From the IMG/VR virus record IMGVR_UViG_3300045988_183451: DNA of 64,000 bases; one strand, given 5' to 3'. Below are positions 435 to 36,747 of the stretch, in pieces. Made by a program: the position numbers and the translations under genes. Source of the DNA: a virus. Position 1 is the first letter of the stretch. Each line of letters begins with the position of its first letter. Below the pieces are notes generated by a model. It searched no databases. It saw only the letters and a list, made by a program, of their open reading frames with translations, and was not told where the DNA came from.

Positions 435-3400
435 ATGGATAATGAGAGATTTAAAGCATCTGGAAATAATGGAAAAAATCCAAAAGGTTATAATAATAAT
501 CCTACAAATTCAAGAAATATAGATTTTAAGGCTACAAATAGTAAGAATAACGAAGCTACAAGCAATAATGGACCATCTGCTTCTACTGTTATTAATAAAG
601 CTATTCCTACAAATAATAATTCTAGCACACGTTCTGATGTTACAAATGAATTTGTATTTAATAAAAATAATAATGATAATTCTAATAATACAAATTGCAT
701 TAATAATAATAATGATAGCGGCAAAGGCAATAATGCTTATGATAATATAAAAAATAATGTAAATGATGATTCAAAGATAGGCTTAAATAGCCCTAGTATA
801 GGGACTGATGCAGCACGTACTTATAATGCTGTTAGTAGTACAGTTTATAATATGACTGATGGCAAAATTCGTTTAGGTTCATTACAAGATGGCAGTGAAA
901 GAGGTGGAGCTAGACAAGTTTTAGCTGAAACTGTTTATAATTACACAACACAGGGAGCTAGAGATAGAGAAAATAACAGTGTTTATGACAATAAGGTGCG
1001 ATATAATAAAACAATGGCAGTAATGTCTCTGGTTTGTCATACTTCAAGAGAAAATATAATTGCTGATGCTTATGATAAGATTGATTGGAATGATAAAGCT
1101 ACTTTTGACCATATGGAAAGAATGGGTGTTGTTTCTACTAAAGACCAGAATTATATTAATAATTTATGGAAATCTCCTATTGAGCTTGTAGATGATAATG
1201 GAAATGTTTTAAAGACAAAAGAGGGAGATACTATCACTTTAGATAAACTAGCTTCAAAAATACCTATAGACTACAAAAATGAATTTTACGCTACTGGTAA
1301 AATAAGATACGAAGAAGATGGAAAATCATATTTACTTCATATAAAAGGAAGAGACCCATCAGAAGTAAGAGAAGCTTATAATGCTGCAAAAATGGAACAG
1401 TACAAGAATAAAAATGCAATAAAAGCAACATCTTATAAGGATAAAGAGCGAATTTTAGCAAGTATTAAAAGCAAACAGATTAATTATTTAAAGAAAAAAA
1501 GCTACACTGGTAAATTTGATGGAACAATAGAAACGGCCAACAAAGAAGTAAAGGAACTTGATAAGCGAATATCAGATATTGAAAAGAAAATAGCATCGGC
1601 TAATAATCCTACTGATGAAGAAAATTTTATGAAGCAATTATCTGAATTAAAAGAAGATAAAGCAGATTATGCTACGTTTTTAAAGACAGGAGCTAAATCT
1701 GAAAGAAGCGGTAATGCTGAAAACAGAAGGTCTTATGGTAAGGTTATTGTTGAACAAAATATATTAGGGGATGATTTTTATAGAGGAACTCAATTTGTAA
1801 AAAATAGCAAAAAAGCAATTACTGCAACAGCAAGATTAGCCGTAAAGACAACAACAAAAGCAAGTGCTGGAATTATGACAGCGGCAACAGCTATCCCTAG
1901 AAAAGTAAGTCCTAATTCAAAAGCTGGATTAATAGCAGATAATTTAAATACTAAAGCTCATAATGCTAAAGATACTATAAATGAAAAAGTAAGATATAAG
2001 ACTAAAGACGAAAAAAAGCAAATAAAGCAAAATAAAAAGATAGAAAATAAAGCTAAGGTTTATAAGAAAAGAGAAGAAAGAACCGTTAAAATAGAAGACC
2101 ATATAAATAAGCTTACTTCTGGCAATTTAAGTAAAAGAGAATTAAAAAAATTAGATAATTATGAATCTCAATTAAAAAATGGGTTTTCACTTACTGATAG
2201 TGCCAAAAAGAATTATGCAGAATTACTAAAAAAACAAAAAGATGGTACTTTAACAACTAAAAATAAAAGAAATTTAAAAATTAGCAAAAAATTACAAAAA
2301 GCTAATTATATAAATAATAATAAAGCCATTGTAGCAAAAGCACAATTTAACAAGCTTAAAGCAAAAGTTGGAAATACAGGCTTGGGGAAAAAAGCAACAT
2401 CTGGAATGCAAAAATTTAAAAATTCAAAAGCAGGGCAGGTTCTTTCTAATGTTGGAGACAAGATAGGTAAAGGGTTTAAGACATTGAACAATAAGGTTAA
2501 AAGCTTTCATCCTGTAAGAAGATTATCCAAAATAAAACAGGATATACTTAAACCTTTTAATTTATTAAAAAAATGGCTTTTAAAAATATTAGGAACGTTA
2601 TTGGCTTACTATTTATTTATGATTGGGTTAGCATTTGTGTTTTTAATACCAATAATGGCATTAGGCTCATTTTTTGATGCTCTACCTAGTTCAAAAATCT
2701 CAAATGAACTAGCACAAATAAATTATGTACAGGTTATTGTTAATGATACCGCAAATACACTTGGAAAACAGCTAACAAAAACAGCAATAAAAGATGCAGA
2801 AACTCACTTTTTGTCTGAAGAAGGGGCTGTTGAAAGTAGAAAATATGCTTGGAAAAAAGCTGTATCTGAAGGTAGTATAAAACATATTTGGGCCACGGAA
2901 GATTTAGATAAAGAGGTATGGGATAGGACTGAATTATCAGGTGTATCTGCCAATTTACTTCCTATTACGAGTATGATGCATTATAGGTATAATCAATCAA
3001 TAGATTTTGATAACTATTTAACAGCAAAAGCTTATATTTATTTTATGTATGTGAGGTCACATAGTACCGCAGCAGATGAATATGGGAATGTATATAGTTA
3101 TGATACATTAGCTGATTGTCCTGATGATAGCGTGTATGTTACGAAACCTACATATAATACCGATACTTCTGCTGTTGATAGAGGAACGGAAGGTTGTACT
3201 AATCTTTATATACACGGATATTCTGCTAATTATAATAAAGCTATTAATAAAGCAAGAGCTGGATTAGGCGATTTCTTAAATTTAGTTCAAGGCGCATTAG
3301 GTATCGGTCATCCAGATGGGTCTAATGAAGACAATGGTGTATTTATTGATAAGAAACCTTATGATAGTAAAGGTGAATGTGACAACTATGAGGCTTTTCA

Positions 3401-5213
3401 AGCTGGCGTAGGAGATGATTATACAAATTGTGGTAAAAAAGAACATGACCATAAAAAAGAAGGATGTCCTGAAGCTTGGTTTGATAGTGATGGAAATGAA
3501 TGTACAAAAGAAGAACATAATCATGAGCAAGATGGCTGTACGAAAGCCTGGTTCACAACAGATGGAGATAAATGTGACATTGAAGAACATATCCATAATG
3601 ATGATTGTTATGAATGGTATCAAGAATTTTTAGGCTATAATGATGAAACGCATGAAGAAAGTTCTGATTGTTATGAAACACAATGGCTACCGACAAAGAC
3701 AAGAGTATATTTCAAGGATTGTGCTTATAATAATAATATTTTGTTAGATTATGACGAATATCATAATAGCGATGAGGACGAATATTATTGTGAAGATTGT
3801 GATGAATACCATACAGTAGACCATATATTTGATGGATTTTATGAATGGATTGATGTAATGATATGTAACGGACATCACGAACATAATGAAAACTGTGAAG
3901 TTTACAGCGACCCTGTTCGAGGTGATTTAATTTGTGGATATGATTATGAACATAGTCATGAAGATTCAGGTGAAAATTTCACTTGGGATTGTGATAAGGA
4001 AGAACATAACCATAGTGAAGCAGGAGAAGAATATACTTGGGCTTGTGGTATTGAAGGACATATACATGACCCTTGGGTATCAGAAGATAATCCAGGATGT
4101 TTCAAAACAGCTTATGTATGTATGGGTCATTGTGGCGGACATATTTCACCTACTATAAATTTATCAGAAGATATGACTTATGATACATTATGTTTTGAAG
4201 ATAATTTTAAAACACCTTTGCTATTAAGTAATACGGATTTTGCTATCTCAAATATAAGAGAAACTTATAAGACAATAGATGCATGGCAAAATCATTGGAT
4301 TGAAGCAGCTAATTCGTGGTTTTATCTACCAATAAGAAGTCCAATACAAGCTATTGAATGGAAAAATACAAAATTATTTACATCTTCATTATCAATACTT
4401 AACTGGATTAAAAATAAAGCTAGTGGAAGTAGTGATTACTCTTATGTAAATGAGGATGCTTATAAAATGCAAGATAAAGATTATTTTGAATTTGATGGTT
4501 GGACTGATGAACAATCAGATGGTAATTGGGTAATTAAAAAGGACGTTTTACAAGATTTAAAAGACCTTTATGGAGATTACTATGAGGATAATTACCAAAA
4601 TGGTATAGATAATTGGAAATCATTTGAAGTAACATTTCCTTCTGCTATTAATGAGTGTTTAAATGACAAACAAGTATCTGATACTTTAAAAAACATTCAG
4701 ACAAGTAATAATTTGACTTTATCTGAAAAGCAAAAAGCTATTCTTGAAAAAGGCTTACGTTCAGTAGGTAAGTTTTATTATTCTGAAAGTAAAAACAGTC
4801 CTAATGCTCATAAGAATGCTGTATATTCAGATACAATAGGTGGTCCAGCGGATGCTTCAGGCTTTTTAATAGGTACTTATCGAAGAGGTACAATTAATGT
4901 TAATGGATATTATGGGTTATTAGATGAAAATACTAATTTTTATAGTGAAGGTTATTCAGGCAGTGATTGGAAGGTTGGAGATATTGTTAGTTCGGCAGAT
5001 GGTAAATGTGCTATGTATTTAGGATATTTAAAGAATGGTATTGATGATTATTCTATACTTACAATGAAATTTAAGAGTCCTGATAAAAACCAAAATAAGA
5101 CAGGTATATATATACTTGAATGTTCTAAAGATTATGGTGGAGTAGTTGTAAGAAAAGTAACAATGAGTGAGCTTCAATCAACTTATCCTCATATTTATAG
5201 ACCGTCTTATTAA
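435..5213 (+). CDS. giant 1592-aa protein: Asn-rich N-terminus, K/E-rich coiled-coil region, central TM segment, C-terminal Cys/His-rich EEHxH repeats; possible tape-measure-like or surface/virion protein
   Basis: Long uninterrupted ORF with SD (taggagataaagaaATG); TM stretch LLKILGTLLAYYLFMIGLAFVFLIPIMALGSFF around nt 2580-2680; tandem repeats C-x-(K/E)EEHxH..GC.(E/K)AWF.(S/T)DG..C at about nt 3426-3620. Confidence 0.65.
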   Translation: MDNERFKASGNNGKNPKGYNNNPTNSRNIDFKATNSKNNEATSNNGPSASTVINKAIPTNNNSSTRSDVTNEFVFNKNNNDNSNNTNCINNNNDSGKGNNAYDNIKNNVNDDSKIGLNSPSIGTDAARTYNAVSSTVYNMTDGKIRLGSLQDGSERGGARQVLAETVYNYTTQGARDRENNSVYDNKVRYNKTMAVMSLVCHTSRENIIADAYDKIDWNDKATFDHMERMGVVSTKDQNYINNLWKSPIELVDDNGNVLKTKEGDTITLDKLASKIPIDYKNEFYATGKIRYEEDGKSYLLHIKGRDPSEVREAYNAAKMEQYKNKNAIKATSYKDKERILASIKSKQINYLKKKSYTGKFDGTIETANKEVKELDKRISDIEKKIASANNPTDEENFMKQLSELKEDKADYATFLKTGAKSERSGNAENRRSYGKVIVEQNILGDDFYRGTQFVKNSKKAITATARLAVKTTTKASAGIMTAATAIPRKVSPNSKAGLIADNLNTKAHNAKDTINEKVRYKTKDEKKQIKQNKKIENKAKVYKKREERTVKIEDHINKLTSGNLSKRELKKLDNYESQLKNGFSLTDSAKKNYAELLKKQKDGTLTTKNKRNLKISKKLQKANYINNNKAIVAKAQFNKLKAKVGNTGLGKKATSGMQKFKNSKAGQVLSNVGDKIGKGFKTLNNKVKSFHPVRRLSKIKQDILKPFNLLKKWLLKILGTLLAYYLFMIGLAFVFLIPIMALGSFFDALPSSKISNELAQINYVQVIVNDTANTLGKQLTKTAIKDAETHFLSEEGAVESRKYAWKKAVSEGSIKHIWATEDLDKEVWDRTELSGVSANLLPITSMMHYRYNQSIDFDNYLTAKAYIYFMYVRSHSTAADEYGNVYSYDTLADCPDDSVYVTKPTYNTDTSAVDRGTEGCTNLYIHGYSANYNKAINKARAGLGDFLNLVQGALGIGHPDGSNEDNGVFIDKKPYDSKGECDNYEAFQAGVGDDYTNCGKKEHDHKKEGCPEAWFDSDGNECTKEEHNHEQDGCTKAWFTTDGDKCDIEEHIHNDDCYEWYQEFLGYNDETHEESSDCYETQWLPTKTRVYFKDCAYNNNILLDYDEYHNSDEDEYYCEDCDEYHTVDHIFDGFYEWIDVMICNGHHEHNENCEVYSDPVRGDLICGYDYEHSHEDSGENFTWDCDKEEHNHSEAGEEYTWACGIEGHIHDPWVSEDNPGCFKTAYVCMGHCGGHISPTINLSEDMTYDTLCFEDNFKTPLLLSNTDFAISNIRETYKTIDAWQNHWIEAANSWFYLPIRSPIQAIEWKNTKLFTSSLSILNWIKNKASGSSDYSYVNEDAYKMQDKDYFEFDGWTDEQSDGNWVIKKDVLQDLKDLYGDYYEDNYQNGIDNWKSFEVTFPSAINECLNDKQVSDTLKNIQTSNNLTLSEKQKAILEKGLRSVGKFYYSESKNSPNAHKNAVYSDTIGGPADASGFLIGTYRRGTINVNGYYGLLDENTNFYSEGYSGSDWKVGDIVSSADGKCAMYLGYLKNGIDDYSILTMKFKSPDKNQNKTGIYILECSKDYGGVVVRKVTMSELQSTYPHIYRPSY

Positions 5214-20136: not shown

Positions 20137-20664
20137 GTGATTATTATGATGGGAAAGCAGCATTTGACATTTGGATTAGCAACAGGAGCTATTACCATTT
20201 TTACATTAAAAGAATTAGGTTATACAGACATATGGAATAATTCTCCTTATTTATTATGTATAACGGCATTAGGTTCATTACTTCCAGATATTGATAATCC
20301 TAATACAACATTAGGAAGTAAGGTGGAATTTTTAAGTAATTTTTTGTATTGCACAATAGGACATAGGACTTATACGCATGATTTATTTTTAATGTTGTCA
20401 TTAATGTTCCTTACAATAACAAAATGGAATAATATGTTTCTATGGTTTTTATGGCTTGGAATAATGGGGCATTTATTTTTAGATAGTTTAACAGCTAATG
20501 GAATTCCATTTTTTTATATCTTTAATAAAAAGAATTTACATTTAATACCTTATAAATTTAGATTTCATTCAAATAGCTCTACAGCTAAGATAGTTACAAT
20601 AATGTTCTCATTTATATATGGCTTATGTAATTATTATTATCTGACGTCTTTAAATATCCTCTAA
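20137..20664 (+). CDS. membrane-bound metal-dependent hydrolase-like protein (YdjM/DUF457-like)
   Basis: TM-rich with LLPDIDNPNTTLG and HRTYTHD motifs. Confidence 0.4.
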   Translation: MIIMMGKQHLTFGLATGAITIFTLKELGYTDIWNNSPYLLCITALGSLLPDIDNPNTTLGSKVEFLSNFLYCTIGHRTYTHDLFLMLSLMFLTITKWNNMFLWFLWLGIMGHLFLDSLTANGIPFFYIFNKKNLHLIPYKFRFHSNSSTAKIVTIMFSFIYGLCNYYYLTSLNIL

Positions 20665-20800: not shown

Positions 20801-20930
20801 ATTATAATCATTAATTTTTTCTTTTCGTTTATATTAATGGTTATTTATTTAAGTCTTATCTTAAATAAAACTCCTTTCTTTTGGTATTTGTTAGTAACAA
20901 TCGCTAAAAATAATTAATTTTATTTTTAGC

Positions 20931-20980
20931 CTGCATCATCTAAAAGGTAGTTAATCTAGGTTCGATTCCTAGTGGTGCAG
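20931..20980 (+). ncRNA. tRNA-like minihelix (acceptor stem + T-arm with GGTTCGATTCC T-loop) followed by T-run; not a complete tRNA
   Basis: 5' ctgcatc pairs with 3' ggtgcag (one G-U); T-stem ctagg/cctag; T-loop ttcgatt; only 17 nt between acceptor and T-arm, so no D or anticodon arm; ttttatcaat follows. Confidence 0.25.
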
Positions 20981-21116
20981 TTTTATCAATAAAAATATTG
21001 ATAATTATGTATTTTCGTTATGGAATGAAATATTTTATTTAGCTTACGTATTTCTCATAAAAAATATAAAAACCAAGAACGAAAAGAATAAAAAGATGAA
21101 AAGGAGTATTTAAGAA

Positions 21117-21311
21117 ATGCATGAGATTGTAGAAAATTATGGAAAAGTTATTTTAGCTTTATTAGCGATTGCTGTAGTTATTACATTATCTGTTTTAACT
21201 TATAATACAGTAGCAAAGAAGACAGCAGAAGGTGTTAAGTCTATTAATTACGATACTGATGCTTCAAATGTAAATAATATCTGGAATAATACAGAGCCAA
21301 CAACAAAGTAA
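21117..21311 (+). CDS. Flp-family-like mini-pilin (leaderless)
   Basis: MHEIVENYGKVILALLAIAVVITLSV matches the mature Flp N-terminus (xIEYGLIAALIAV) without any prepilin leader; SD aaaaggagtatttaagaaATG. Confidence 0.5.
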   Translation: MHEIVENYGKVILALLAIAVVITLSVLTYNTVAKKTAEGVKSINYDTDASNVNNIWNNTEPTTK

Positions 21312-21430
21312 TAATTCAATAAAAATTATTACAGAAGGTAAAAATAGAGAAGTAGAGATAATTAATTCTCTATTTCTCTATATTTTTTTTAAAAAGAAAC
21401 TAATTAATAATAAAAAAATGGAGAAAAGAT

Positions 21431-22564
21431 ATGACTGAAAATTATACAAACCGTTCATTAGAAGAAATTTTAGAAAAAAACAAAAATGAACTTTTTAGTG
21501 AAATTGAGGAGTATTTAAATAATGAAAAGATAACTGATATTGAATGGGATGGAGTTCATTTATGGATAACAGAATTGGGGAAAGGCTGTTATAAAACAAA
21601 TAAAAAATTATCAAAAGAATTTATAAATAATTTAAGTATTAGATTAGCAAATATTATGAAAACAAATTTTAATACACAAAATCCAATACTTGAAGCGCAT
21701 ACTAAAGAATTAAGAATTTCAATTTTTCATGAAACAAGAAGTGAGGAAAAATCATTAACAATAAGAAAAATTCCAACAAATTTAAGGTACGACCACGATA
21801 TTCTTATAGCTAATGGAACAATCCCAGAAGAGCTGCTTAATTTATTAGAAAATTGTATAAAAGCGCATTGCAACATAGTAATAGGTGGAAGACCCCATGC
21901 AGGAAAAACAGAATTGCTTAAGTATCTATCTAATTTTATTCCAGCAAATGAAAAAGTTGTTACATTGGAAGATAATGCAGAAATTCATTATAGAGAAATA
22001 CACCCAGATAGAAAATGTGTTCCCTTTTTAGTAGATGATAAAGTAACATATTCAGATGCTATTAAGGCTTGTTTAAGACACAATGCTGACTGGTTATTAT
22101 TATCAGAATCTCGTGGTCCAGAAATTGTAGAGCTTATAAATGCATTAAGTACTGGTAGTTATTGTATGACAACTATTCACGTAGATGGTGCAAGAGACAT
22201 TCCAGATAGAATGTATAACATGCTTGGAAATAGTAGTGATTCTCCTAGATTTATAAATAATATTTATCGTTATATGGATGTAGGAGTAATGATAAAAGCA
22301 GATAAGAAAGAAAATAGAGTTGTTTCAGAAGTAGGTTTTTTTAATAGAACGAATATAAAAAAAGAGGATGGCTCATATACAACTGAAAACATTTATACCC
22401 CTTTTTATAATACGTTTGAAGGTATTAAAGATAAGGATACATTACCTATTAATATAAAAAGAGCTTTTAGTAGAGCAAAAATAGATAATCCTTTTGAAAG
22501 ACCAGAAACACCAAAAGATATCATTTTTGAAAGGAGTAATAAAACAAATGAAGCAGCAAATTGA
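21431..22564 (+). CDS. CpaF/TadA/VirB11-family secretion ATPase
   Basis: Walker A GGRPHAGKTELL, TLEDNAEIHY, Walker B/Asp-box DWLLLSESRGPE, His-box MTTIHVDGARD; about 377 aa. Confidence 0.7.
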   Translation: MTENYTNRSLEEILEKNKNELFSEIEEYLNNEKITDIEWDGVHLWITELGKGCYKTNKKLSKEFINNLSIRLANIMKTNFNTQNPILEAHTKELRISIFHETRSEEKSLTIRKIPTNLRYDHDILIANGTIPEELLNLLENCIKAHCNIVIGGRPHAGKTELLKYLSNFIPANEKVVTLEDNAEIHYREIHPDRKCVPFLVDDKVTYSDAIKACLRHNADWLLLSESRGPEIVELINALSTGSYCMTTIHVDGARDIPDRMYNMLGNSSDSPRFINNIYRYMDVGVMIKADKKENRVVSEVGFFNRTNIKKEDGSYTTENIYTPFYNTFEGIKDKDTLPINIKRAFSRAKIDNPFERPETPKDIIFERSNKTNEAAN

Positions 22565-24053
22565 GAAAATTAAAAATTATTTTTCTTTAAGACAAATGAA
22601 GAAAGAAATCTATGGTTATGGATATACTGTGTCTGGGGTGAAATATATTTTACTTATATTATTTAGTATAGCTGTAACGATAGGTTTTAGTCTTTTATAT
22701 CAAATGAAAATTGGATTTACATTAATTGTAGCTTTTACTTTTATATGTGTAATTCCTTTAATTATTAGAGCAAAATTTATTAATTTATATCAGAAAAAGC
22801 GTTTTAATGAAGTGGATATTTACTTACATCAAATGGTTTATTCTTTTCAAAAGAAGCCTAAGATATTAACAGCATTAGAAGATACTGCAAAAGTAAGTAC
22901 AGGAAAATTAAAGAAAACATTAGAAAAAGCTATTGAAAATTTATACAACAGTGCATCTGAAAATATTTATGAAGAAACTTTTGCAATTATTGAGAAAGAA
23001 TATAATAATTCAAGAGTGAAAGCACTTAATAAATATATGATTAATATTGAACAAAATGGTGGTGAATATTCAGATTCTATTAATATCATGTTAGTAGATA
23101 TTGATAGCTGGATAAATAGAACATATATAGAGCAAGCGGATGTAGAGAATGTAAAGAAAACTAATATGATTGGTTTATTTATAGCCTTTATAATGGGTAG
23201 TGTTTGCTCAATATTCTCATTATTTTTAAATAGCAGAAACGATATGTCTATTGCTATAACTGGTAGTATTGCTGATGATATTTCTTATCAATTAGGTTGT
23301 CTTATATTTTTGATTGTTAGTATTATATTTTTTACATATACACAAACTGGATACAATAGAGATTGGGTGTCAAAATCATTAAATAATAAGACTGTTATGA
23401 CCGATTATAAAAAAGCAACTGAATTTAATCCTAATAAATTAAGACTTATTAGTATACCGATATATGTATTTTTTGCATTAATAGGTGTTATTATAATATT
23501 TATAAAAACAATTCCTTATAGGGCCGCTATTGCTATTGGATTATTTGCTTTTGATATTTATTTAATAGCATCTCCTGATATACAAAAAAAAGGAGCAGTA
23601 TCAAGAACAAAAAAGAATATTCAGGAAAGCTTTTCGGAATGGTTAAGAGACGTTTCATTAAATCTTCAAAAAGAACCTTTACTTTCTGCAATACAAGATA
23701 CTTATGAAGAATGCCCTGTAGTTTTAAAACCAGAGTTAGAAATATTCTTAAAGAGAATTGAAGAAAATCCCTCAGATGTAGAACCTTATTATGAGTTTTT
23801 AGCGCGTTTTCATATTCTTGATATAAGTTCAGCTATTAGAAATCTTTATTCAATTTCAGATAATACAGATATTGATATGGATAAGCAGTTAAATTCTTTA
23901 ATAGAACGTAACTATGAAATTATTAATAAGAATGAGATTATATCAAGCGAGGATAGAAGCGCAGTACTACATTTTTCTGAAAATATCCCAATTATTGTGG
24001 CTTGTATAAAGTTAGGTGTGGATATGCTTGCTTTAATATCAATTTTAATTTAA
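22548..24053 (+). CDS. polytopic inner-membrane platform protein (TadB/TadC / GspF-like by position and topology)
   Basis: Start reset to ATG 22548 with SD gaaaggagtaataaaacaaATG (track start 22494 lies inside the upstream gene); many TM helices. Confidence 0.45.
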   Translation: MKQQIEKIKNYFSLRQMKKEIYGYGYTVSGVKYILLILFSIAVTIGFSLLYQMKIGFTLIVAFTFICVIPLIIRAKFINLYQKKRFNEVDIYLHQMVYSFQKKPKILTALEDTAKVSTGKLKKTLEKAIENLYNSASENIYEETFAIIEKEYNNSRVKALNKYMINIEQNGGEYSDSINIMLVDIDSWINRTYIEQADVENVKKTNMIGLFIAFIMGSVCSIFSLFLNSRNDMSIAITGSIADDISYQLGCLIFLIVSIIFFTYTQTGYNRDWVSKSLNNKTVMTDYKKATEFNPNKLRLISIPIYVFFALIGVIIIFIKTIPYRAAIAIGLFAFDIYLIASPDIQKKGAVSRTKKNIQESFSEWLRDVSLNLQKEPLLSAIQDTYEECPVVLKPELEIFLKRIEENPSDVEPYYEFLARFHILDISSAIRNLYSISDNTDIDMDKQLNSLIERNYEIINKNEIISSEDRSAVLHFSENIPIIVACIKLGVDMLALISILI

Positions 24054-24065
24054 AGGAGAAAAATT

Positions 24066-24170
24066 ATGCATACTATAATAGAAAATTTTTCAGATGTCTT
24101 AATAGCCTTAATAACAAATTCTGTAATTATTGCAATTTTGTTCAAATGTCTTTTTATGATAGCAAGATAA
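24066..24170 (+). CDS. Flp-family-like mini-pilin paralogue (34 aa)
   Basis: MHTIIENFSDVLIALITNSVIIAILF; SD taaaggagaaaaattATG; below the ORF-track size cutoff. Confidence 0.45.
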   Translation: MHTIIENFSDVLIALITNSVIIAILFKCLFMIAR

Positions 24171-24238
24171 AAATATAAAAATATAGGCATTAATATTTAA
24201 TTAATAATATTAGTGCCTATAAAAAGGAGTAAAAAAAT

Positions 24239-24376
24239 ATGCATGACATAATAGAATTTTATGGAGAAACAATAGTTAATTTAATAGGAGTTTCTACAGG
24301 TATGGCACTATTTATCTTATTATTAATAAATTATGGCGCTACAGTGCAACAAATATTAAATGGAATATTTATGTAA
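24239..24376 (+). CDS. Flp-family-like mini-pilin paralogue (45 aa)
   Basis: MHDIIEFYGETIVNLIGVSTGMALFILLL; SD aaaaaggagtaaaaaaatATG. Confidence 0.45.
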   Translation: MHDIIEFYGETIVNLIGVSTGMALFILLLINYGATVQQILNGIFM

Positions 24377-24402
24377 AAAAATATAAAGAAAGGAATATAT
24401 AA

Positions 24403-24912
24403 ATGAAAAATATACTTGAAAGTAGTATTTATCTTGTATTAATGTCGTTTATTTGTATAATATCAGTTCAATTTATAATAATAAATACAAAAGTTTCAAA
24501 AGTAAACGAAGTTGCTACTTATATAGAAAATTATATTGAAGCTAATGGCACTTGTATTTCAAAACAGAAAACGATTAAAAAGATAGATACAAATGGAAAT
24601 ATTATTGATGGAATAGAAGATGAACCTGTTTATTATAAATATGATAATACAGGAAAAATAGTTGAAGCATCTGATGCTGACATTAATAATGATAATATTA
24701 CAGTATTTCCTATAATGCAGCAGGAAAAATTAGATGCTTTACAAAAAATAACTAATAGTTATGGATTTGACGTAAAATGGAAATATATAGCTAGTACTAA
24801 TAATTATGGTTATATTGAGTATACAGTAGGATATAAACTTAATAATAGCTTAATTGGCTGGAAAAAAACTCATACATATCAGGGATTAGCTAGATTTTCA
24901 TTAGATACATAA
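24403..24912 (+). CDS. TadE-like pseudopilin / minor pilin candidate (N-terminal TM anchor)
   Basis: N-terminal hydrophobic helix SSIYLVLMSFICIISVQFIII then soluble domain; position within the pilus locus. Confidence 0.35.
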   Translation: MKNILESSIYLVLMSFICIISVQFIIINTKVSKVNEVATYIENYIEANGTCISKQKTIKKIDTNGNIIDGIEDEPVYYKYDNTGKIVEASDADINNDNITVFPIMQQEKLDALQKITNSYGFDVKWKYIASTNNYGYIEYTVGYKLNNSLIGWKKTHTYQGLARFSLDT

Positions 24913-24925
24913 GGTAGGTGGTTTT

Positions 24926-25381
24926 ATGAGAACAAGTATAACAACCTCTACATTATTAATATCTATAGTTTTAATTATATTAATACATTGCACAATTATT
25001 AGCCAAAATGCAAGATATACAGAAGTAAGCACAGGCTTAAATAGTTCTATGGATTATGCCTATGACAGAATGTTTGATTATTATTCAGATAAAGAATTTA
25101 TTAATAAATATGTTGTTTTAGATGAAAATGGTTATGCTAAAACACAAGATGGAAAATTAGTATTCAAAGATGATGTTAAGAACGTACAAGCTAATTTAGT
25201 AGAATATTTTTGTAATGTGTTAAAAGAACGATTAGGCAGTGATGGTAAAATAAAAGTACAATTATTATATATGGATTTACAAGAAGGTACTTTTCAGGTA
25301 AGGGTTACTGAATATTTCCCTTATCCTCTACTTAATAAAGTTGGGACATGCGTTTACGAAAAAACATATACATTATATTAA
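24926..25381 (+). CDS. TadE/TadF-like pseudopilin candidate (N-terminal TM anchor)
   Basis: N-terminal helix TSTLLISIVLIILIHCTII; SD ataaggtaggtggttttATG. Confidence 0.35.
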   Translation: MRTSITTSTLLISIVLIILIHCTIISQNARYTEVSTGLNSSMDYAYDRMFDYYSDKEFINKYVVLDENGYAKTQDGKLVFKDDVKNVQANLVEYFCNVLKERLGSDGKIKVQLLYMDLQEGTFQVRVTEYFPYPLLNKVGTCVYEKTYTLY

Positions 25382-25524: not shown

Positions 25525-26802
25525 ATGAATAATCAGTATTCTATAGAAGAAAAGAAAAACAGACATTTATTATTTGATACAAATAAGAACATATTTTTGA
25601 CTGGTCCTGGAGGAACAGGAAAATCAACATTACTAAATGAATTCATTGAAAATAATCCTGATACGATTGTTACAGCTCCAACTGGGTTAGCTGCTGTAAA
25701 TATTGGGGGAGTAACTACATTTAATGCTTTTAGTATACCTATTCCTTGTTTTGGAGCAACAACAAATAAGCTTACAGAAGCTAAATTAAAAAAGATTATA
25801 TTAGCTGATAATATAATTATTGATGAAATAAGTATGTGTAGGGTAGATGCTTTTGTTTATATTGTAAAGGTAATTAAAAAAGCTGAAAAGATAAAAGGTA
25901 AGAAGATAAGAATTATTGTTAGTGGGGATTTTTCACAACTTCCTCCTGTTATTACTGATGAAGATGCTAAAATGTTAAAAAAATTTGGTTTTCATAAATC
26001 TGGATTACCTTTTACCTGTAAAGAATGGGAGAACTGTCATTTTACTACTATTGAACTTACAGAGGTTAAAAGACAGGACAATCTTGAATTTATTGAAAAC
26101 TTACATAAGGCAAGATTAGCAGATAAGAAATGTATTACATATTTTAATCAATTTGTTTCTACTGATGTACCAGAAGATTGTATTCATATATGTGGAACTA
26201 ATGCAGAAAGCTATAGACTTAATAAAGAGTATTTAGATTCTTTAGAAGGGATGCCTTATGCATATCAGGCTATAAAAAAAGGAAGAACTACAGGAGCGTA
26301 TGTAGATGATATTATAGTCCTTAAAGATGGAGCTAATGTATATTTTACTGTTAATGATATATATGGCGGTGAGTATGTTAATGGAACTTTTGGAAAAATA
26401 CATAAGTGTTACAAAGACCATATAGAGGTAGATGTTGATGGAGAAGTTATAGATGTCACACCTCATAGATATTCAGTTTATAATTATAAAATTGTAAATG
26501 GAGCTTTAAAGAAAGAAGAAATAGGTTCAGTTTTACAAATGCCTTTAAAATTAGCTAAAGCGATTACTGTACATAAATCACAAGGAAAAACATTTGACAA
26601 AGAAGTGTTCACTCCTAAAATATTTGCAGCGGGACAGGCTTATGTTGCATTAAGCAGAGTAAGAAGTCCTGAAGGTTTGTTTTTAACAGAACCTTTACTT
26701 CCAGAACAATTAATGTCAGATAAAACAGTGCTAAAATTTTATAAAAACAACTATAAATTTGACATTGTTGGAAAAAAGAAAATAAAAGAGGAAGTAGGAT
26801 GA
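25525..26802 (+). CDS. PIF1/RecD-like SF1B DNA helicase
   Basis: Walker A FLTGPGGTGKSTLLNEF; IIIDEISM; KAITVHKSQGKTFD; YVALSRVRS. Confidence 0.7.
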   Translation: MNNQYSIEEKKNRHLLFDTNKNIFLTGPGGTGKSTLLNEFIENNPDTIVTAPTGLAAVNIGGVTTFNAFSIPIPCFGATTNKLTEAKLKKIILADNIIIDEISMCRVDAFVYIVKVIKKAEKIKGKKIRIIVSGDFSQLPPVITDEDAKMLKKFGFHKSGLPFTCKEWENCHFTTIELTEVKRQDNLEFIENLHKARLADKKCITYFNQFVSTDVPEDCIHICGTNAESYRLNKEYLDSLEGMPYAYQAIKKGRTTGAYVDDIIVLKDGANVYFTVNDIYGGEYVNGTFGKIHKCYKDHIEVDVDGEVIDVTPHRYSVYNYKIVNGALKKEEIGSVLQMPLKLAKAITVHKSQGKTFDKEVFTPKIFAAGQAYVALSRVRSPEGLFLTEPLLPEQLMSDKTVLKFYKNNYKFDIVGKKKIKEEVG

Positions 26803-27257: not shown

Positions 27258-27492
27258 GTAAAAAATAGATACAAGTAATAAAAACCACTATCTCCTAGTT
27301 GACAAGAAATAGTGGCTTTTATTATGCGCAAAAAGAAAAAAATATTAATAAAATCTGACTGTTTATTGCTAAAAAATATAACAGACAAAATTATTGAAAA
27401 TAACAGGCTTAATAAAATTTAATATATATTAAGCAAATTTTAGCGTATATTTGAAAATATGCTTTATCAAATAAATTTATTAAATAATAAGA

Positions 27493-27639
27493 TTACTTAA
27501 TTTTATTTTGAAGATACAACTTAATGTATTCTCTTGTTTGAGAAGTACAATCTAACTCATCAATAGACTTTTTACCTGTTTTTACATCTTCAATAGCTTG
27601 CTTGAAAAATTCATCTTTAATTAAATCACTCATATCCAT
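27493..27639 (-). CDS. small hypothetical protein (48 aa)
   Basis: Minus-strand ORF MDMSDLIKDEFFKQAIEDVKTGKKSIDELD... with SD ggagtaagaatt; the conserved motif lies upstream on the same strand. Confidence 0.35.
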   Translation of the reverse strand: MDMSDLIKDEFFKQAIEDVKTGKKSIDELDCTSQTREYIKLYLQNKIK

Positions 27640-27687
27640 AATTCTTACTCCTTTTTTACATATATATAAGTATAACTTTTATATAAT

Positions 27688-27697
27688 ATAATAGTGA
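27688..27697 (-). promoter_or_regulatory. conserved CACTATTAT motif on the minus strand
   Basis: Reverse complement reads aactCACTATTATattatat; 50 nt upstream of the minus-strand ORF 27493..27639. Confidence 0.4.
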
Positions 27698-27735
27698 GTT
27701 ATTATTTTTTTTAAGCATATAAATATATAAACTTT

Positions 27736-27957
27736 TTATAAAAACCTATCAAAAATAGCATTAGATTTAAACTTGCAATAATTAAGTATTCTTTTCTCCT
27801 TAGTATCACCATAATATTGTATATTAGGATTGAAATTTTTAATAAGAGCATATGTTTTATCTAATGAACCATTATTTTTAATCAGCTCATCATATAGCTC
27901 TTGATATTTGCTATAACCTTCTCCATTTATTTCTGAACTTGGTTTGTTTTGTAGCAT
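27736..27957 (-). CDS. hypothetical small protein
   Basis: Minus-strand ORF abutting the HigA-like gene. Confidence 0.4.
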   Translation of the reverse strand: MLQNKPSSEINGEGYSKYQELYDELIKNNGSLDKTYALIKNFNPNIQYYGDTKEKRILNYCKFKSNAIFDRFL

Positions 27958-27959
27958 TT

Positions 27960-28238
27960 TTATACCCTCTCATAGTTTATTTCTTCCATATTTTTATCAT
28001 AGACATATTGTAAATTTAACCAAAACATCCGACTTGTCTCTGTTGCATAAGCTAATCTAAAAGCATAAAATATATCTACATCTTTATCACCATTAATTAA
28101 ATCTGTAAGGCCTTTTAAATTAATCCCAGCTTTGCTACTAAATTGTTTTAATGTTAAGTTTGTTTCCTTTATATATTCTTCAATATAATATCCTGGATGA
28201 AATATACATTGTTCATTTACTTCTAAATATTTACTCAT
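27960..28238 (-). CDS. HigA/VapI-family XRE-type HTH protein (antitoxin-like)
   Basis: FHPGYYIEEYIKE...LTLKQFSSKAGINLKGLTDLINGDKDV...AFRLAYATETSRMFWLNLQYVYD matches the HigA pattern HPGE..E....LS...LA...G.S...L..I..GKR.IS...A..LA..FG.S..FWLNLQ..YDL. Confidence 0.55.
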   Translation of the reverse strand: MSKYLEVNEQCIFHPGYYIEEYIKETNLTLKQFSSKAGINLKGLTDLINGDKDVDIFYAFRLAYATETSRMFWLNLQYVYDKNMEEINYERV

Positions 28239-28794
28239 TATGAATTCCTTCCCTTTTATTAAAAAATGCTAACCCTATACAAATACTGTCAGCAATATCA
28301 TCACTAACATTTATATCATATATTTGTTTTACTAAATTTATAGCTCTATTTTTTAACTCTTTTCTTTTTAATTTAACCTTATTTTCTGAATTAGGTATAC
28401 CTACAGCTTTTCTCCAAGTAGTAGGTGAATAAAAACATATAGAACATCTCTTATGTTCTATTGAATAACTAAGAACTAAGCCTTGTATATGACATAGCTT
28501 TTTATAAGCATATCCATCTTTTCCCATATAGGTATCTTCAATAACTATCATTTTTGGCTTATATTTCTTAAGATAATTATTAATTCCTTTGATTATATCA
28601 ATGATACGATAATCCATATTTTTCTTTTTTATTTCAGCTTTTTCCTGCTTGGTCATATCTTTATTCACTTCATAGGGATTATCTGGTTTTATATATGTAT
28701 AATCTATAAGTTCTTTTGTGTTATAATCAAAGACAGCTATACCAGTATTAGTAGTACTGCCATCTATACTTATTAAATATTGTGTGTTGTTCAT
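28231..28794 (-). CDS. RuvC-like Holliday-junction resolvase (phage-type)
   Basis: N-terminal LISIDGSTTNTGIAVFD (RuvC motif I), MIVIEDTYMG (catalytic Glu), C-terminal DIADSICIGLAFF (D-x-A-D motif). Confidence 0.6.
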   Translation of the reverse strand: MNNTQYLISIDGSTTNTGIAVFDYNTKELIDYTYIKPDNPYEVNKDMTKQEKAEIKKKNMDYRIIDIIKGINNYLKKYKPKMIVIEDTYMGKDGYAYKKLCHIQGLVLSYSIEHKRCSICFYSPTTWRKAVGIPNSENKVKLKRKELKNRAINLVKQIYDINVSDDIADSICIGLAFFNKREGIHNE

Positions 28795-29000
28795 TTCCTA
28801 TATTTCCTTTTTATATTATTTATTACTAATTTATACAAAACCTCTTTTTAATATAAAAGAGTAATCTAGTAACTTTACATTCATAATTCTTAATTGATTT
28901 AAGTGGATTACATAACATTCAGTAGATGTTATATATTATAATCGAACACCCTTTCGGGTGCAAACATTGACTAAACTAGAAATCTTATCATTCTATCCTA

Positions 29001-29294
29001 TCAATCAAATAAGAAAATTTCTAAAGTATTAATAGAACTACCATTTATAGAAGCAATTTCTAGTTCTTCTAATGCAGCCTTTAAATTATCAGATGCCTTT
29101 TCACTAAAAAAGTCTTTAGTTCTAAAATCAATAGGGTTTTCTTTATTAAAGGTTTCTATCTCAATAATTCCTAATCTCTTATTAGAATTTATCCCAAATA
29201 AAATAATATGTGTTGGTGCTATTCTTGAATATGCTGAACCATACTTTTTAATTAACTTTTCTAAAAATACTATATAATCTTTTAATCTCATCAT
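29001..29294 (-). CDS. hypothetical protein
   Basis: First gene of the minus-strand block; the conserved motif lies upstream. Confidence 0.45.
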   Translation of the reverse strand: MMRLKDYIVFLEKLIKKYGSAYSRIAPTHIILFGINSNKRLGIIEIETFNKENPIDFRTKDFFSEKASDNLKAALEELEIASINGSSINTLEIFLFD

Positions 29295-29328
29295 TACGAT
29301 TATTCCTTTCTAATATGAACTATTAATT

Positions 29329-33950: not shown

Positions 33951-34838
33951 ATGAGAGATTGGATAAAAAATATTCATACTGTTGATAAGACTTGTGTGAA
34001 TTCTGAAGGAGAATATTATAAATACACAGAATTTGATAGAAAACCAATATCTTTATATATCGTTGTAACAAGAGATTGTAATGCTAGATGTCCTTTTTGT
34101 GAATATAGAGGGAAAACCGAAAAAATTGACATCAGTAAATTTGAGGAAATTTTTATTGAGTTAAGTAAATATTATGATATTACAACAGTTCATTTTACAG
34201 GTGGAGAACCTACCTTAGAATTAGATACAATTAATGCGTTAAGTAAAACTATAAAAGAAATATCTCCTTTATACAAAACAAGTGTTAATACTAATGGAAT
34301 ATTTTTAAATGAATTGTCTAATATAGATACAATAGATAATATTGCTTTAAGCAGACACACTATTATAGATAAAGATAATTTTGATATTTTTAGAACTAAT
34401 AATATTGCTACATATGAAGACATTTATAATAATAATCATAAGGAAAAAATCCATTTGAGTTGTAATCTTATAAGAGGATATATAGATGGTAGTGATAAAA
34501 TATTAGAATATCTTGAAATGGCATCTAAATTAGATATAAATGATGTAGGTTTTGTTAGTCTTATGGATATAAATGATTATTGTGAAGAAAATTTTGTAGA
34601 CTTTAGTAATATAATTCCAAAGGAAAATAACTTTTTTAATAAAACAAGAGATTATAGGTGTATTAATAATAAGAATGTAATTACTTGTAAGTGTGAAAAT
34701 TATCTTTATAGAGCTAAAAATATGAATTTTGTATCAATGTATCATAGATATGTTATTAAGAATAATGAAAAAGCAGATTTTCTTGTTTATGAAAACAATC
34801 ATTTAAAACAAGGATTCAATGGAAATATTATTATATAG
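33951..34838 (+). CDS. radical SAM enzyme (MoaA/SPASM-like class)
   Basis: CNARCPFC Cx3Cx2C motif in VVTRDCNARCPFCEY; HFTGGEPTL SAM-binding glycine motif; C-terminal Cys cluster CINNKNVITCKC; SD aataggagttctatattATG. Confidence 0.65.
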   Translation: MRDWIKNIHTVDKTCVNSEGEYYKYTEFDRKPISLYIVVTRDCNARCPFCEYRGKTEKIDISKFEEIFIELSKYYDITTVHFTGGEPTLELDTINALSKTIKEISPLYKTSVNTNGIFLNELSNIDTIDNIALSRHTIIDKDNFDIFRTNNIATYEDIYNNNHKEKIHLSCNLIRGYIDGSDKILEYLEMASKLDINDVGFVSLMDINDYCEENFVDFSNIIPKENNFFNKTRDYRCINNKNVITCKCENYLYRAKNMNFVSMYHRYVIKNNEKADFLVYENNHLKQGFNGNIII

Positions 34839-35949: not shown

Positions 35950-36747
35950 ATGAAAGAAGTAACAAGTAGAGAGTTTGCTAATGGAAAAGTATATATGTTA
36001 ATGACTGATGATAATTATCCTATAGAAGTGACTGATACTTTTTTACCTTTCTATACAAAGGATTGTATTAATGAACACACGAATGAACTTAGGGAAGATG
36101 TGCTAGGTTCAAGAGAAGAAAGATGGATGATTGGCGTTAGTTGTATGAGTGGTTGTCCTGTAAGATGCCAATTTTGTAATACTGGGAAATTAAAAAGATA
36201 TAGAAATTTATCTGCAAAAGAGATATATGAACAGGTTGTTTTTATATTAGACAATCATCCAGAGATAAAAGAGATTAATAGTAAGGAATTTAAAATTAAT
36301 TATACAAGAATGGGAGAACCTTTCCTTAATATTGAAGCTGTAAAAGAAGCTATTACTCTTATAGACAATGAGCCAAGACTAAAGAATGTCAAGATACATC
36401 ATTATATAAGCACAATAGGTCTTAAAGGCAGTGATTTTAGTTTTGTAAAGGATAATATTACTTTACAAATTAGCCTACATAGTCTTAATGAGGATAGAAG
36501 ACATAATCTTATTCCTATAAAGGGTCTTATGAGTATAGAAGAATTAGGACAGATAAGAACTAATAGTAATTTAAAAACAACTGTTAATATGACGCTTGTA
36601 GATACAAAAGACTTTGATATTAATATTATGAAAAAGTATTTTGACCCTAAGTATTTTTTTATTAAGCTTAGTCCTATTAATGAGAATGAGGTTAGTAAGG
36701 AACATAATATGGGTAAAGGTATTATTCATAGAGATAATTTAATTTAA
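35950..36747 (+). CDS. RlmN/Cfr-like radical SAM RNA methyltransferase, truncated (265 aa)
   Basis: GVSCMSGCPVRCQFCNTG (compare RlmN SQVGCALECKFCSTA); YTRMGEPFLN (compare MGMGEPLLN); ISTIGLKGS...LQISLHSLNEDRRHNLIPIKG (compare LSTSG...[21 protein letters not shown]); lacks the N- and C-terminal extensions of RlmN. Confidence 0.6.
   Translation: MKEVTSREFANGKVYMLMTDDNYPIEVTDTFLPFYTKDCINEHTNELREDVLGSREERWMIGVSCMSGCPVRCQFCNTGKLKRYRNLSAKEIYEQVVFILDNHPEIKEINSKEFKINYTRMGEPFLNIEAVKEAITLIDNEPRLKNVKIHHYISTIGLKGSDFSFVKDNITLQISLHSLNEDRRHNLIPIKGLMSIEELGQIRTNSNLKTTVNMTLVDTKDFDINIMKKYFDPKYFFIKLSPINENEVSKEHNMGKGIIHRDNLI

Follow-up and report, generated by a model that had tools for sequence, protein, structure and literature searches.

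Seven co-directional genes at positions 21117-25381 (+) of the window, i.e., the whole 64-kb stretch of DNA analysed here, encode what we read, with moderate confidence, as a minimal type IV filament-like machine, one that works without a prepilin peptidase and is adapted to the single membrane of a Gram-positive envelope. The same unrecognised module is found in many Lachnospira genomes, and pLS20, pXO2, and other conjugative plasmids of Gram-positive bacteria carry a split form of it.

Organization of the locus

All seven ORFs were found on the + strand where the preliminary description had placed them, with spacing of -17 to 119 nt (Table 1). The length of the platform protein is counted from an ATG with a GGAG site, the longest frame opening at TTG 22494. 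The G+C content of the operon region is 24-27% and short ORFs are plentiful in it, and the mini-proteins mp1, mp2, and mp3 belong to no database family, as would be expected if AT-rich DNA had thrown up the mini-ORFs by chance and the genuine genes were just those for the ATPase and the membrane protein. We give this explanation next to no credence, as it is refuted by conservation: in dozens of species with ATPases no more than 40-60% identical, the mini-ORFs keep their position, their length class, their N-terminal motif, and their ribosome-binding sites.

Table 1. Features of the operon region, with coordinates in the window.
Feature	Coordinates	Strand	Description
mp1	21117-21311	+	64 aa; leaderless, pilin-like
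Terminator-like hairpin	21344-21391	+	mp1/ATPase intergenic; consensus scan
ATPase gene	21431-22564	+	377 aa; T2SSE superfamily
Platform gene	22548-24053	+	501 aa; polytopic, GspF/PilC-like repeats
mp2	24066-24170	+	34 aa; leaderless mini-protein
mp3	24239-24376	+	45 aa; leaderless mini-protein
p169	24403-24912	+	leaderless, minor-pilin-like
p151	24926-25381	+	N-anchored; last cassette gene

The ATPase and the platform protein

As the preliminary description had expected of a Pfam search, the ATPase matches T2SSE (E = 1.8e-23, 83 bits; cut-off 24.9), and its best PDB match is CpaF (6.7e-21), with the archaeal GspE homolog 2oap (4e-19) and VirB11 (4e-18) also retrieved. Judged by its sequence, the protein is a true secretion ATPase of the hexameric type in the T2SSE superfamily. 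Its motifs are a Walker A GRPHAGKT, a Walker B LLLSESRGPE, a His box TTIHVDG, and an Asp box LEDNAEIH (within VVTLEDNAEIH); the Asp box had earlier been misplaced at DWLLLSESRGPE, which aligns with the Walker B segment of CpaF (IIVGEVRGPE). The score is far under the cut-off of every NCBIfam equivalog, i.e., 96 bits for TIGR03819 (cut-off 373), 96 bits for the VirB11 model TIGR02788 (cut-off 250), and 84 for the TrbB model (cut-off 305). An NJ tree, made with small sampling and a simple method, joins the cassette and Gram-positive plasmid ATPases in one clade apart from CpaF and VirB11 (190/200). The original assignment to a CpaF/TadA/VirB11 family thus stands at the level of the secretion superfamily and falls for the CpaF/TadA clade.

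The 501-aa protein, at first called platform-like, is a remote GspF/PilC-type platform with two tandem repeats, equivalent to a fusion of pLS20 genes 38 and 39: by hhalign, its N-terminal half aligns with gene 38 (E = 1.7e-4, 182 columns) and its C-terminal half with gene 39 (E = 7.5e-6, 177 columns). The locus possesses the polytopic platform of GspF/PilC/TadB-C type that goes with membership of the type IV filament superfamily.

The small proteins are leaderless

The three mini-proteins have related architectures. In mp1, MHEIVENYGK is followed by a hydrophobic helix and a hydrophilic tail of ~30 aa; mp2 consists of MHTIIENFSD and a single hydrophobic helix, with almost nothing else in its 34 aa; and mp3 runs from MHDIIEFYGE through a hydrophobic helix into a short amphipathic tail. 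The common start MH(E/T/D)I(V/I)E(N/F)(Y/F)(G/S), already noticed in the preliminary description, is real and far beyond chance, and 141 further mini-ORFs with the shared start motif lie at matching operon positions in related loci. Homologs of mp1 were recovered independently by phmmer in the equivalent position of 52 loci, and an alignment of 17 sequences shows invariant M, Y8, G9, and K10. ORFs of 32-36 aa equivalent to mp2 lie immediately 3' of the platform gene in many loci, and the position of the mp3 equivalents (41-47 aa) is likewise conserved. No family could be assigned to mp1 from Pfam, NCBIfam, or PHROG; the best matches of its profile in the PDB, which are sub-threshold (E 0.04-3, not significant), are mostly type IV pilins, over the alpha1 helix.

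An AAAGGAG site precedes each of the three mini-genes, with an in-frame stop one (mp1), four (mp2), or two (mp3) codons upstream. Every small gene has an AAGGAG/GGAG site 6-10 nt on the 5' side of its ATG, and a stop 0-7 codons upstream closes the reading frame, so that longer N-termini are impossible. A Shine-Dalgarno-like site is present in 140 of 144 mini-ORFs (the 141 from related loci and the window's three), and the start motif M-x-(D/E)-I-I-E-x-Y-G is conserved over about 90 loci. Because both the ribosome-binding-site-preceded ATGs and the N-terminal motif are conserved to this extent, we conclude that the small proteins are truly leaderless, as had been proposed from the window alone. 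All mp1 relatives agree with this, including the five retrieved among 1.84 billion representative proteins, each of which aligned from target residue 1 or 2. The proteins thus lack the class III signal peptide by which pilins are defined, in which a hydrophilic leader with a terminal Gly/Ala precedes 20-25 hydrophobic residues, often with Glu5; nevertheless, the hydrophobic stretch and an acidic residue 6 are present. Their N-termini are acidic and hold no obvious substitute for the role of the class III leader in fixing N-in topology. To our knowledge, all known type IV pilins carry a leader peptide.

The protein p169 also bears the start motif (MKNILESS), and Glu is therefore found at position 6 in four of the five small proteins, which share one bitopic design. 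Its N-terminal helix is long and its head is a beta-sheet, and p169 is modelled as a pilin "lollipop" similar to PilX, GspI, and GspK-type minor pilins. The p151 family begins with M-R-x-x-I-S/T, has no position-6 Glu, and is kept as the final cassette gene in 52 loci; it matches no Pfam family and resembles the gene 36 family of pLS20 only weakly and marginally (E = 0.018). Glu5-less tip pilins are known, as are minor-pilin sets in which a subunit without Glu5 forms the cap (PMC10191384), a parallel to the five small proteins by which p151 becomes a candidate cap or initiator subunit. The label "TadE/F-like" for p169 and p151 finds no sequence support (hhalign versus TadE, E > 0.5).

The locus is not a Tad/Flp system

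The mini-proteins had also been described as Flp-like. None of 72 mini-proteins matched Flp_Fap (at E <= 10) or any other pilin Pfam family, and hhalign against three real Flp pilins gave E values of 0.016-0.024 over 1-11 columns; at the sequence level, the peptides therefore show no similarity to Flp/Fap pilins, while a pilin-like architecture survives. Neither the locus proteins nor those encoded next to them include a TadZ/CpaE, TadV, or TadE/TadF family member. A24 prepilin peptidases were sought with an HMM made from three annotated TadV-type sequences; its three positive controls score 1e-52 to 1e-76, and it retrieved no such peptidase from the 64-kb window or from ~100 related loci totalling 1.79 Mb, extending the earlier observation that the locus has no TadV. 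With the ATPase outside the CpaF and VirB11 clades, a Tad/Flp system was rejected.

Nine N-terminal residues so well conserved might themselves be a leader. The system would then be of the ordinary Tad/type IV kind, with M-x-D-I-I-E-x-Y-G as a short leader that a host peptidase encoded elsewhere removes by cleaving behind Gly9, and this would fit the invariable Gly at position 9 in the mp1 family, the Gly or Ala at which class III leaders terminate (PMC10191384), and the MSH pilus loci, which likewise have no peptidase of their own and borrow one (PMC6668835). The peptidase search, moreover, was confined to the loci, the window, and the examined plasmid modules. We consider such a leader decidedly unlikely, however. 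True leaders vary in sequence and are basic or neutral, but these nine residues are acidic and the best conserved stretch of the proteins. The p169 and p151 families conserve neither Gly nor Ala at the matching position, and a protein cut after Gly9 would be without Glu5. The A24 search came up empty over about 10 kb around each of the ~100 related loci, over the window, and over the examined plasmid modules, and the ATPase is outside the CpaF clade.

The cassette resembles Tad/Flp (type IVc) systems, of which secretin-less versions are present in monoderms (PMC6668835), in the best PDB match of its ATPase, in its tiny and largely helical subunits, similar to Flp in size, and in the way the operon is arranged (small subunit, ATPase, platform, minor subunits). 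In contrast to those systems, it has no Flp_Fap match, G/XXXXEY leader site, TadV, TadZ/CpaE, or CpaB, no TadE/F detectable by sequence, and no CpaF-clade ATPase, and its platform is one fused protein where theirs is divided between TadB and TadC. The TANB77 Tad-like locus (PMC11680825) is similar to the cassette in coming from gut Clostridia, in its fused TadC-TadB platform, and in its run of unannotated pilin-like genes; unlike the cassette, it retains CpaB, TadZ, and CpaE, has a CpaF of 640 aa and pilin-like proteins of 143-621 aa, and belongs to a different family.

A related module in conjugative plasmids

By sequence comparison, the cassette is closest to an uncharacterised module, genes 37-40, that is shared by pLS20, pXO2, and enterococcal conjugative plasmids. 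In the pLS20 family, genes 36-41 of the conjugation operon are without an assigned function (PMC8557374): gene 37 is annotated as "putative VirB11" and the others as "unknown". Equivalents are carried by pXO2 and by conjugative plasmids of Enterococcus and Listeria. A 2025 review states that Gram-positive T4SSs lack VirB11 (PMC12857230). Over the core that can be aligned, cassette and plasmid ATPases are 25-31% identical, with 33% in the tblastn segment that matches best, and hhalign pairs p169 with gene 40 (E = 1.5e-4) as it does the platform halves with genes 38 and 39. The result is a clean diagonal with nearly all off-diagonal pairs insignificant; the lowest of these were mp1/g40 (0.0024, 28 columns) and p151/g41 (0.0085, 17 columns), and the mini-proteins versus g41 were not significant. 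Thus, ATPase clade, homologous platform, gene-40-like protein, and matching order are all found in the cassette, and both modules have a large adhesin next door and tiny leaderless one-helix proteins (47-50 aa in the plasmids), common in design with sequence similarity undetected. The location differs: the plasmid module, with its platform in two genes, sits inside a T4SS operon (VirD4, VirB4, VirB2-like gene), whereas the window and chromosomal cassettes stand alone outside any conjugation operon with the platform fused.

This kinship brings in a DNA-transfer accessory, i.e., a VirB11-type energiser with membrane partners serving Gram-positive conjugative type IV secretion (e.g., VirB2-like pilus assembly), in which case the window would be a conjugative element and not a phage. 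The nearest annotated relatives do lie within conjugation operons (pLS20-like, pXO2, Enterococcus, Listeria) beside TrbC/VirB2-family and VirD4 genes, the ATPase clade and the alignments to genes 38, 39, and 40 speak for it as well, and a preprint reports VirB2-like pili in Gram-positive systems. We nonetheless hold it to be unlikely. VirB4, VirD4, VirB6, and VirB2-like proteins were not found among the window ORFs scanned, the Pfam-annotated chromosomal neighbourhoods consist of housekeeping genes with no T4SS genes, so that the cassette is self-contained in most genomes, and the VirB11 model score is well short of its cut-off.

Distribution and neighbours

The order small subunit-ATPase-platform-small subunits is kept in >50 Lachnospira-group genomes, and the cassette resides mainly on chromosomes, in Lachnospira and other Lachnospiraceae. 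The copy in the window falls in a phage-like sister clade and lies on a phage-like element of gut Lachnospiraceae. The apparatus is thus not peculiar to phage, as the preliminary description might have led one to think.

Adhesin-type proteins (Flg_new, RicinB, SpaA, and an adhesive pectate-lyase-like domain) make up seven of the nine neighbours sampled, and plasmid homologs adjoin a Tie or SpaA adhesin. This adjacency holds in only about half of the loci, and the adhesins have ordinary Sec signals and sortase-like anchors. The neighbours differ from locus to locus, and there is no adhesin-type neighbour beside the window's own copy.

Proposed machine

In the filament-like machine that we favour, a cytoplasmic hexameric ATPase would power a membrane platform of two fused GspF-like repeats, which would pull small bitopic subunits out of the membrane and stack them through the cell wall as a thin helical fibre or a short pseudopilus. 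The subunits would be made in final form, beginning with Met, with the conserved acidic residue 6 standing in for pilin Glu5 ahead of the hydrophobic helix. We infer polymerisation and subunit roles, mp1 being the likely major subunit, mp2, mp3, and p169 putative minor subunits, and p151, without the Glu, the likely cap or initiator. The most likely role of the fibre is adhesion or cell-cell contact, because chromosomal copies are often beside large Sec-exported adhesins and the plasmid homolog is beside a mating adhesin. On a phage-like element, it could speculatively be an auxiliary module, kin to that of the Lachnospira chromosomes, altering the surface of the infected or lysogenic cell.

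The minimal type IV filaments of monoderms (Com pilus) and T2SS pseudopili have a comparable composition, with a core ATPase, a two-repeat platform, and one major and about four minor subunits, one of these without the conserved Glu. Unlike the cassette's proteins, their pilins carry class III signal peptides and require a prepilin peptidase (ComC/GspO), and their ATPases form the PilB/GspE branch, to which the cassette ATPase is much less similar. In contrast to SpoIIIAA-SpoIIIAB, which belong to the feeding channel of sporulation, the cassette has no SpoIIIAE-AH homologs, no sporulation context, and no detected sequence similarity, and its platform has two repeats and many transmembrane helices.

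A piston or channel without an extended filament, such as a T2SS-like pseudopilus or a SpoIIIA-like ATPase-platform complex that includes small membrane subunits, might instead carry large Sec-exported adhesins or enzymes across the thick wall or display them. We think this improbable, given that the neighbours vary between loci and are missing beside the window's copy, and that no ring-building (SpoIIIAG/AH-like) or secretin-like partner is present; we also know of no established T2SS-like secretion in monoderms. Most parts are common to the piston and the filament, which differ only in output.

The hairpin between mp1 and the ATPase gene, detected by a consensus scan, has a 15-pair stem followed by the T-run ATTTTTTTTA. 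It is absent as a conserved feature from the chromosomal loci, where mp1 abuts the ATPase gene. In the window, it may act as an attenuator giving a surplus of mp1 transcript.

A seven-gene cassette encoding a secretion ATPase and a remote platform protein

The seven ORFs are as given in the preliminary description, all on the + strand and within positions 21117-25381 (see table). The window has a G+C content of 21-31%, and almost every long ORF lies on the + strand. Each small gene of the cassette is preceded by an AAGGAG/GGAG site 6-10 nt 5' of its ATG and by an in-frame stop 0-7 codons upstream, and consecutive genes are separated by -17 to 119 nt. In the window, mp1 is followed by a terminator-like hairpin and a T-run, which may be a phage-specific means of raising mp1 expression; the chromosomal loci, in which mp1 and the ATPase gene adjoin, do not have it.

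The cassette, its surroundings and features of related loci
Feature	Position	Remarks
Very large protein	window 435-5213	1592 aa; no Pfam or PHROG match
YdjM-family membrane hydrolase	window 20137-20664	Pfam 1.6e-23; directly 5' of cassette
tRNA-like element	window 20892-20981	borderline; just 5' of mp1; anticodon TTA (would read UAA stop); T-loop-like GGTTCGATTCC at 20959
mp1 (mini-protein)	window 21117-21311	64 aa
Terminator-like hairpin	window 21344-21391	3' of mp1
ATPase	window 21431-22564	377 aa
Putative platform	window 22548-24053	501 aa
mp2 (mini-protein)	window 24066-24170	34 aa
mp3 (mini-protein)	window 24239-24376	45 aa
p169 (N-anchored)	window 24403-24912
p151 (N-anchored)	window 24926-25381
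Dda/PIF1-like helicase	window 25525-26802	directly after cassette
Minus-strand stretch	window 27400-29300	sole stretch with minus-strand genes; local GC skew dip
RuvC-like resolvase	window 28231-28794	in the minus-strand stretch, which also holds an HTH-like gene
Radical SAM proteins (three)	window 33951-34838; 35950-36747; 43699-44496
Dda/PIF1-like helicase	window 52454-55219	921 aa; extra N-terminal domain matching unknown PHROG
Thg1-like tRNA-His guanylyltransferase	window 58152-59024	PHROG 3e-85
Very large protein of a related element	L004 15843-20654	1603 aa; near cassette; no Pfam or PHROG match
Large Sec-signal surface proteins beside cassettes of related loci	L002 4533-8606; L029 13718-16750; L066 7123-9720; L074 13612-17649; L093 7987-10008

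Matching Pfam T2SSE at 1.8e-23, the 377-aa product is a secretion ATPase, as first proposed; its nearest PDB match is CpaF (6.7e-21), followed by an archaeal GspE homolog and VirB11. It falls far under the cut-off of every curated NCBIfam model (VirB11, TadA-type, TrbB, FlaI, ComGA). TIGR03819, the 'helicase/secretion neighbourhood ATPase' family, is among its best sub-threshold NCBIfam matches, and the placing of a helicase beside the secretion ATPase in the window recalls that family. The His box had been called correctly; the segment first read as the Asp box (DWLLLSESRGPE) lines up with IIVGEVRGPE in CpaF and is Walker B, and the Asp box is LEDNAEIH. A simple and thinly sampled neighbour-joining tree, built on 304 columns, recovers the cassette ATPases as one clade in 200/200 bootstrap replicates and separates them, together with Gram-positive plasmid ATPases, from CpaF and VirB11 in 190/200, which places the protein outside the CpaF clade.

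The 501-aa protein itself scores only 16.7 bits against T2SSF, and its profile found no real match among PDB sequences. Because 11 of 32 homologs match T2SSF (best 1.8e-6) and the two halves of the protein can be aligned to one another in T2SSF-domain register (E 3e-4), we take it as a remote two-repeat platform of the GspF/PilC type.

The small proteins lack leaders

None of the five small proteins (mp1, mp2, mp3, p169 and p151) belongs to a family in Pfam, NCBIfam or PHROGs. At equivalent operon positions, related loci hold 141 mini-ORFs, all of which start M-x-(D/E)-I-(I/V)-E-x-(Y/F)-G, although in the 'downstream' set, which was chosen by regular expression, the columns of this motif are partly circular; the in-frame sequence upstream of these starts is unconserved. 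When the window's three are included, an SD-like site is present in 140 of 144. Independently of this, phmmer recovered homologs of mp1 in 52 loci, their first fourteen residues being nearly invariant (MHDIIEHYGKVVVA), and 1.84 billion representatives, searched exhaustively, contained five mp1 relatives, all of which align from target residue 1 or 2. Given the conserved starts and SD-like sites, the independent recovery of mp1 and the alignment of its relatives from their first residues, the leaderlessness noted in the preliminary description is real and family-wide. No paper on 'leaderless pilins' or the like was found in the literature.

One could instead suppose that the nine-residue N-terminal segment is itself a short leader, cut by a peptidase of the host. 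We disfavour this, since these nine residues, which are acidic, are also the most conserved part of the proteins, and since p169 and p151 lack a conserved Gly at that position.

The cassette is distinct from Tad/Flp systems

The mini-proteins had been described as Flp-like and the two larger small proteins as TadE/F-like. For comparison, real Flp, TadV, CpaF, TadB/C and TadE sequences were taken from three annotated Tad loci, yielding alignments of two to four sequences each, which limits profile-profile sensitivity. None of 72 mini-proteins matches Flp_Fap, TadE or N_methyl by profile; profile-profile comparison with the small Flp alignments gave E-values of 0.016-0.024 over at most 11 columns, and p169 and p151 gave nothing against the similarly small TadE alignments. 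The platform shows a faint in-register signal to TadB (E 0.018, 126 columns). A simple charge-based topology count does not discriminate here, since a genuine Flp prepilin, taken as a control, yields much the same pattern. The reported lack of a TadV-type peptidase held up, as the A24 peptidase HMM matches nothing in the window or in about 100 related loci (1.79 Mb) and recovers its three controls at 1e-52 to 1e-76. No TadZ/CpaE or CpaB was found among the locus proteins or the neighbours scanned. Judged by these comparisons, the cassette does not belong to the Tad/Flp family, because Flp_Fap and TadE matches, an A24 peptidase, TadZ/CpaE and CpaB are all missing and the ATPase is separate from CpaF.

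The YdjM-family hydrolase was considered as a substitute processing enzyme. It is kept at that position only in the phage-like clade (the window and the related loci L006 and L087) and is missing from chromosomal cassettes, and is thus not a core part.

Relatives in Gram-positive conjugative plasmids

Searched at the protein level, the plasmid collection gave its best matches in genes of the 'CpaF/VirB11 family' on Gram-positive conjugative plasmids, namely E. faecium p32 (33% identity), the pLS20-like pBS64, pXO2, and Listeria and Enterococcus plasmids. The conjugation operons compared (L095-L101, from E. faecium p32, pBS64, pXO2, E. innesii and Listeria plasmids) conserve an ATPase, two platform-like proteins of half size, and both pilin-like and tiny one-helix proteins. 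Their common order opens with a large adhesin (SpaA or thioester-domain Tie) and an N-anchored protein of ~125 aa; the ATPase comes next, followed by two membrane proteins of ~250-270 aa, an N-anchored protein of ~120 aa and tiny one-helix proteins of 47-50 aa, and a TrbC/VirB2-like gene and VirD4 close the series.

In profile-profile comparisons with genes 36-41 of pLS20-family plasmids, the N-terminal half of the platform matches gene 38 (1.7e-4, 182 columns), its C-terminal half gene 39 (7.5e-6, 177 columns) and p169 gene 40 (1.5e-4), with a marginal similarity between p151 and gene 36. Off-diagonal pairs are nearly all insignificant, the lowest two being mp1 with gene 40 (E 0.0024, 28 columns) and p151 with gene 41 (E 0.0085, 17 columns), and no similarity was detectable between the tiny plasmid proteins and the cassette mini-proteins. 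The two ~250-270-aa plasmid proteins look like a split GspF-type platform. Plasmid genes 36 and 40 touch DUF5411 and DUF4320 below threshold, and no literature on either DUF was found.

The pLS20 family paper gives gene 37 as 'putative VirB11' and genes 36 and 38-41 as 'unknown' (PMC8557374), and a December 2025 review holds VirB11 to be universally missing from Gram-positive T4SSs (PMC12857230). VirB2-like pili, built from proteins of another, two-helix kind, are proposed in a preprint of December 2025. The literature gives the plasmid module no function, and we found no account of it as a type IV filament-like system. A role of the cassette as a conjugation accessory is kept open.

A proposed type IV filament-like machine without leaders

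In reviews, four core parts are ascribed to every type IV filament system, among them a prepilin peptidase and leader-bearing pilins (PMC10191384). The cassette has the parts of a minimal such machine, minus leader and peptidase: a motor ATPase, a putative two-repeat platform, a ~60-aa subunit encoded first, and four more small bitopic proteins, three of which keep the acidic residue at position 6 and one of which does not. It is a distinct, widespread and uncharacterised relative of type IV filament machines, with subunits that have no class III signal peptides. The observation holds up and has more to offer than an ordinary Tad locus would, but the Tad/Flp label must change.

The homologies and the leaderless starts are shown; from the parts list we infer the mechanism, including polymerisation and the subunit roles: the ATPase-driven platform would lift ready-made subunits out of the membrane to form a thin fibre or a pseudopilus, with mp1 as the presumed major subunit and p151 as a candidate cap. 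A machine that acts as a piston or channel, with no fibre formed, is likewise kept open.

A wider proposal, which we offer tentatively and hold to be somewhat doubtful, is that the cassette represents an unrecognised branch of type IV filaments built from leaderless, ready-made pilins, in which the 'universal' prepilin peptidase is dispensable. The branch would be common to Lachnospira abundant in the human gut, their large phages and, with a split platform, the pLS20/pXO2/enterococcal conjugative plasmids, explaining their orphan 'VirB11-like' genes and giving them a mating or adhesion fibre. If true, the rule of leader-bearing pilins and a prepilin peptidase in every type IV filament system (PMC10191384) would be broken, and the leaderless system would serve as a very small model of subunit recognition and membrane extraction. 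The plasmid link provides a testable hypothesis for conserved Gram-positive conjugation-operon genes so far listed as 'unknown' (PMC8557374) or overlooked (PMC12857230).

Distribution and adhesin neighbours

Relatives of the ATPase number in the hundreds, and a scan of one genome per species yielded 202 loci. The best 80 of these belong to Lachnospira, the Eubacterium eligens group and other Lachnospiraceae; the ATPase-platform pair is conserved in 80/80 and the full cassette in about 50. In L. multipara and others, housekeeping genes lie on both sides of the cassette, which is therefore chromosomal rather than prophage-borne. Two Lachnospira-type cassettes (L014 and L023, ATPase 56% identical to the window's) come from bins labelled Desulfovibrio piger and Evtepia, probably through binning contamination; in L014 the platform-to-p151 region is seemingly truncated.

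Large Sec-exported proteins of adhesin type adjoin about half of the chromosomal cassettes on the same strand, and also the plasmid modules. They include PelX-type pectate lyase, Flg_new/RicinB, SpaA-repeat proteins with sortase-like anchors and 'adhesive pectate-lyase-like' proteins, and in L093 the gene overlaps the ATPase start codon. This proximity points to a role in adhesion or cell-cell contact or, alternatively, in helping to display the neighbouring adhesins. A reading of these neighbours as pilin-like tip subunits is rejected, as they have ordinary Sec signal peptides and, in several cases, sortase-type anchors. The Lachnospira and E. eligens group species, many of which carry the cassette, are common fibre-degrading gut commensals, so it may bear on their attachment to substrates or to each other, and its carriage by a phage-like element suggests an ability of viruses to move the trait or remodel it.

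The element carrying the cassette

The window falls in a sister clade (198/200) of contigs resembling large mobile elements or phages, among them a 244-kb IMG/VR contig whose ATPase is 73% identical by tblastn match and 79% over the aligned core. More distant versions are carried by uncultivated gut 'Bacteriophage sp.' contigs. Nucleotide searches of the phage and plasmid collections, with the locus and with the window's first 25 kb as queries, gave no match. Because of PHROG matches to endolysin-like, RuvC-like, Dda/PIF1-like helicase (two), Thg1 and radical SAM genes, and because of the related IMG/VR contigs, 'phage-like' is a plausible description of the window. No virion structural genes were found in its 64 kb. 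A conjugative element was also considered and set aside, T4SS genes not being found in the window ORFs scanned.

The minus-strand stretch may mark the boundary of a regulatory or recombination module. The Thg1-like gene and the three radical SAM genes are unusual auxiliary content for such an element, the former accompanied by no tRNA in the window by default ARAGORN. The tRNA-like element was called by ARAGORN at a relaxed threshold only, with default ARAGORN and Rfam negative, and could be a degenerate suppressor tRNA or an attachment-site remnant.
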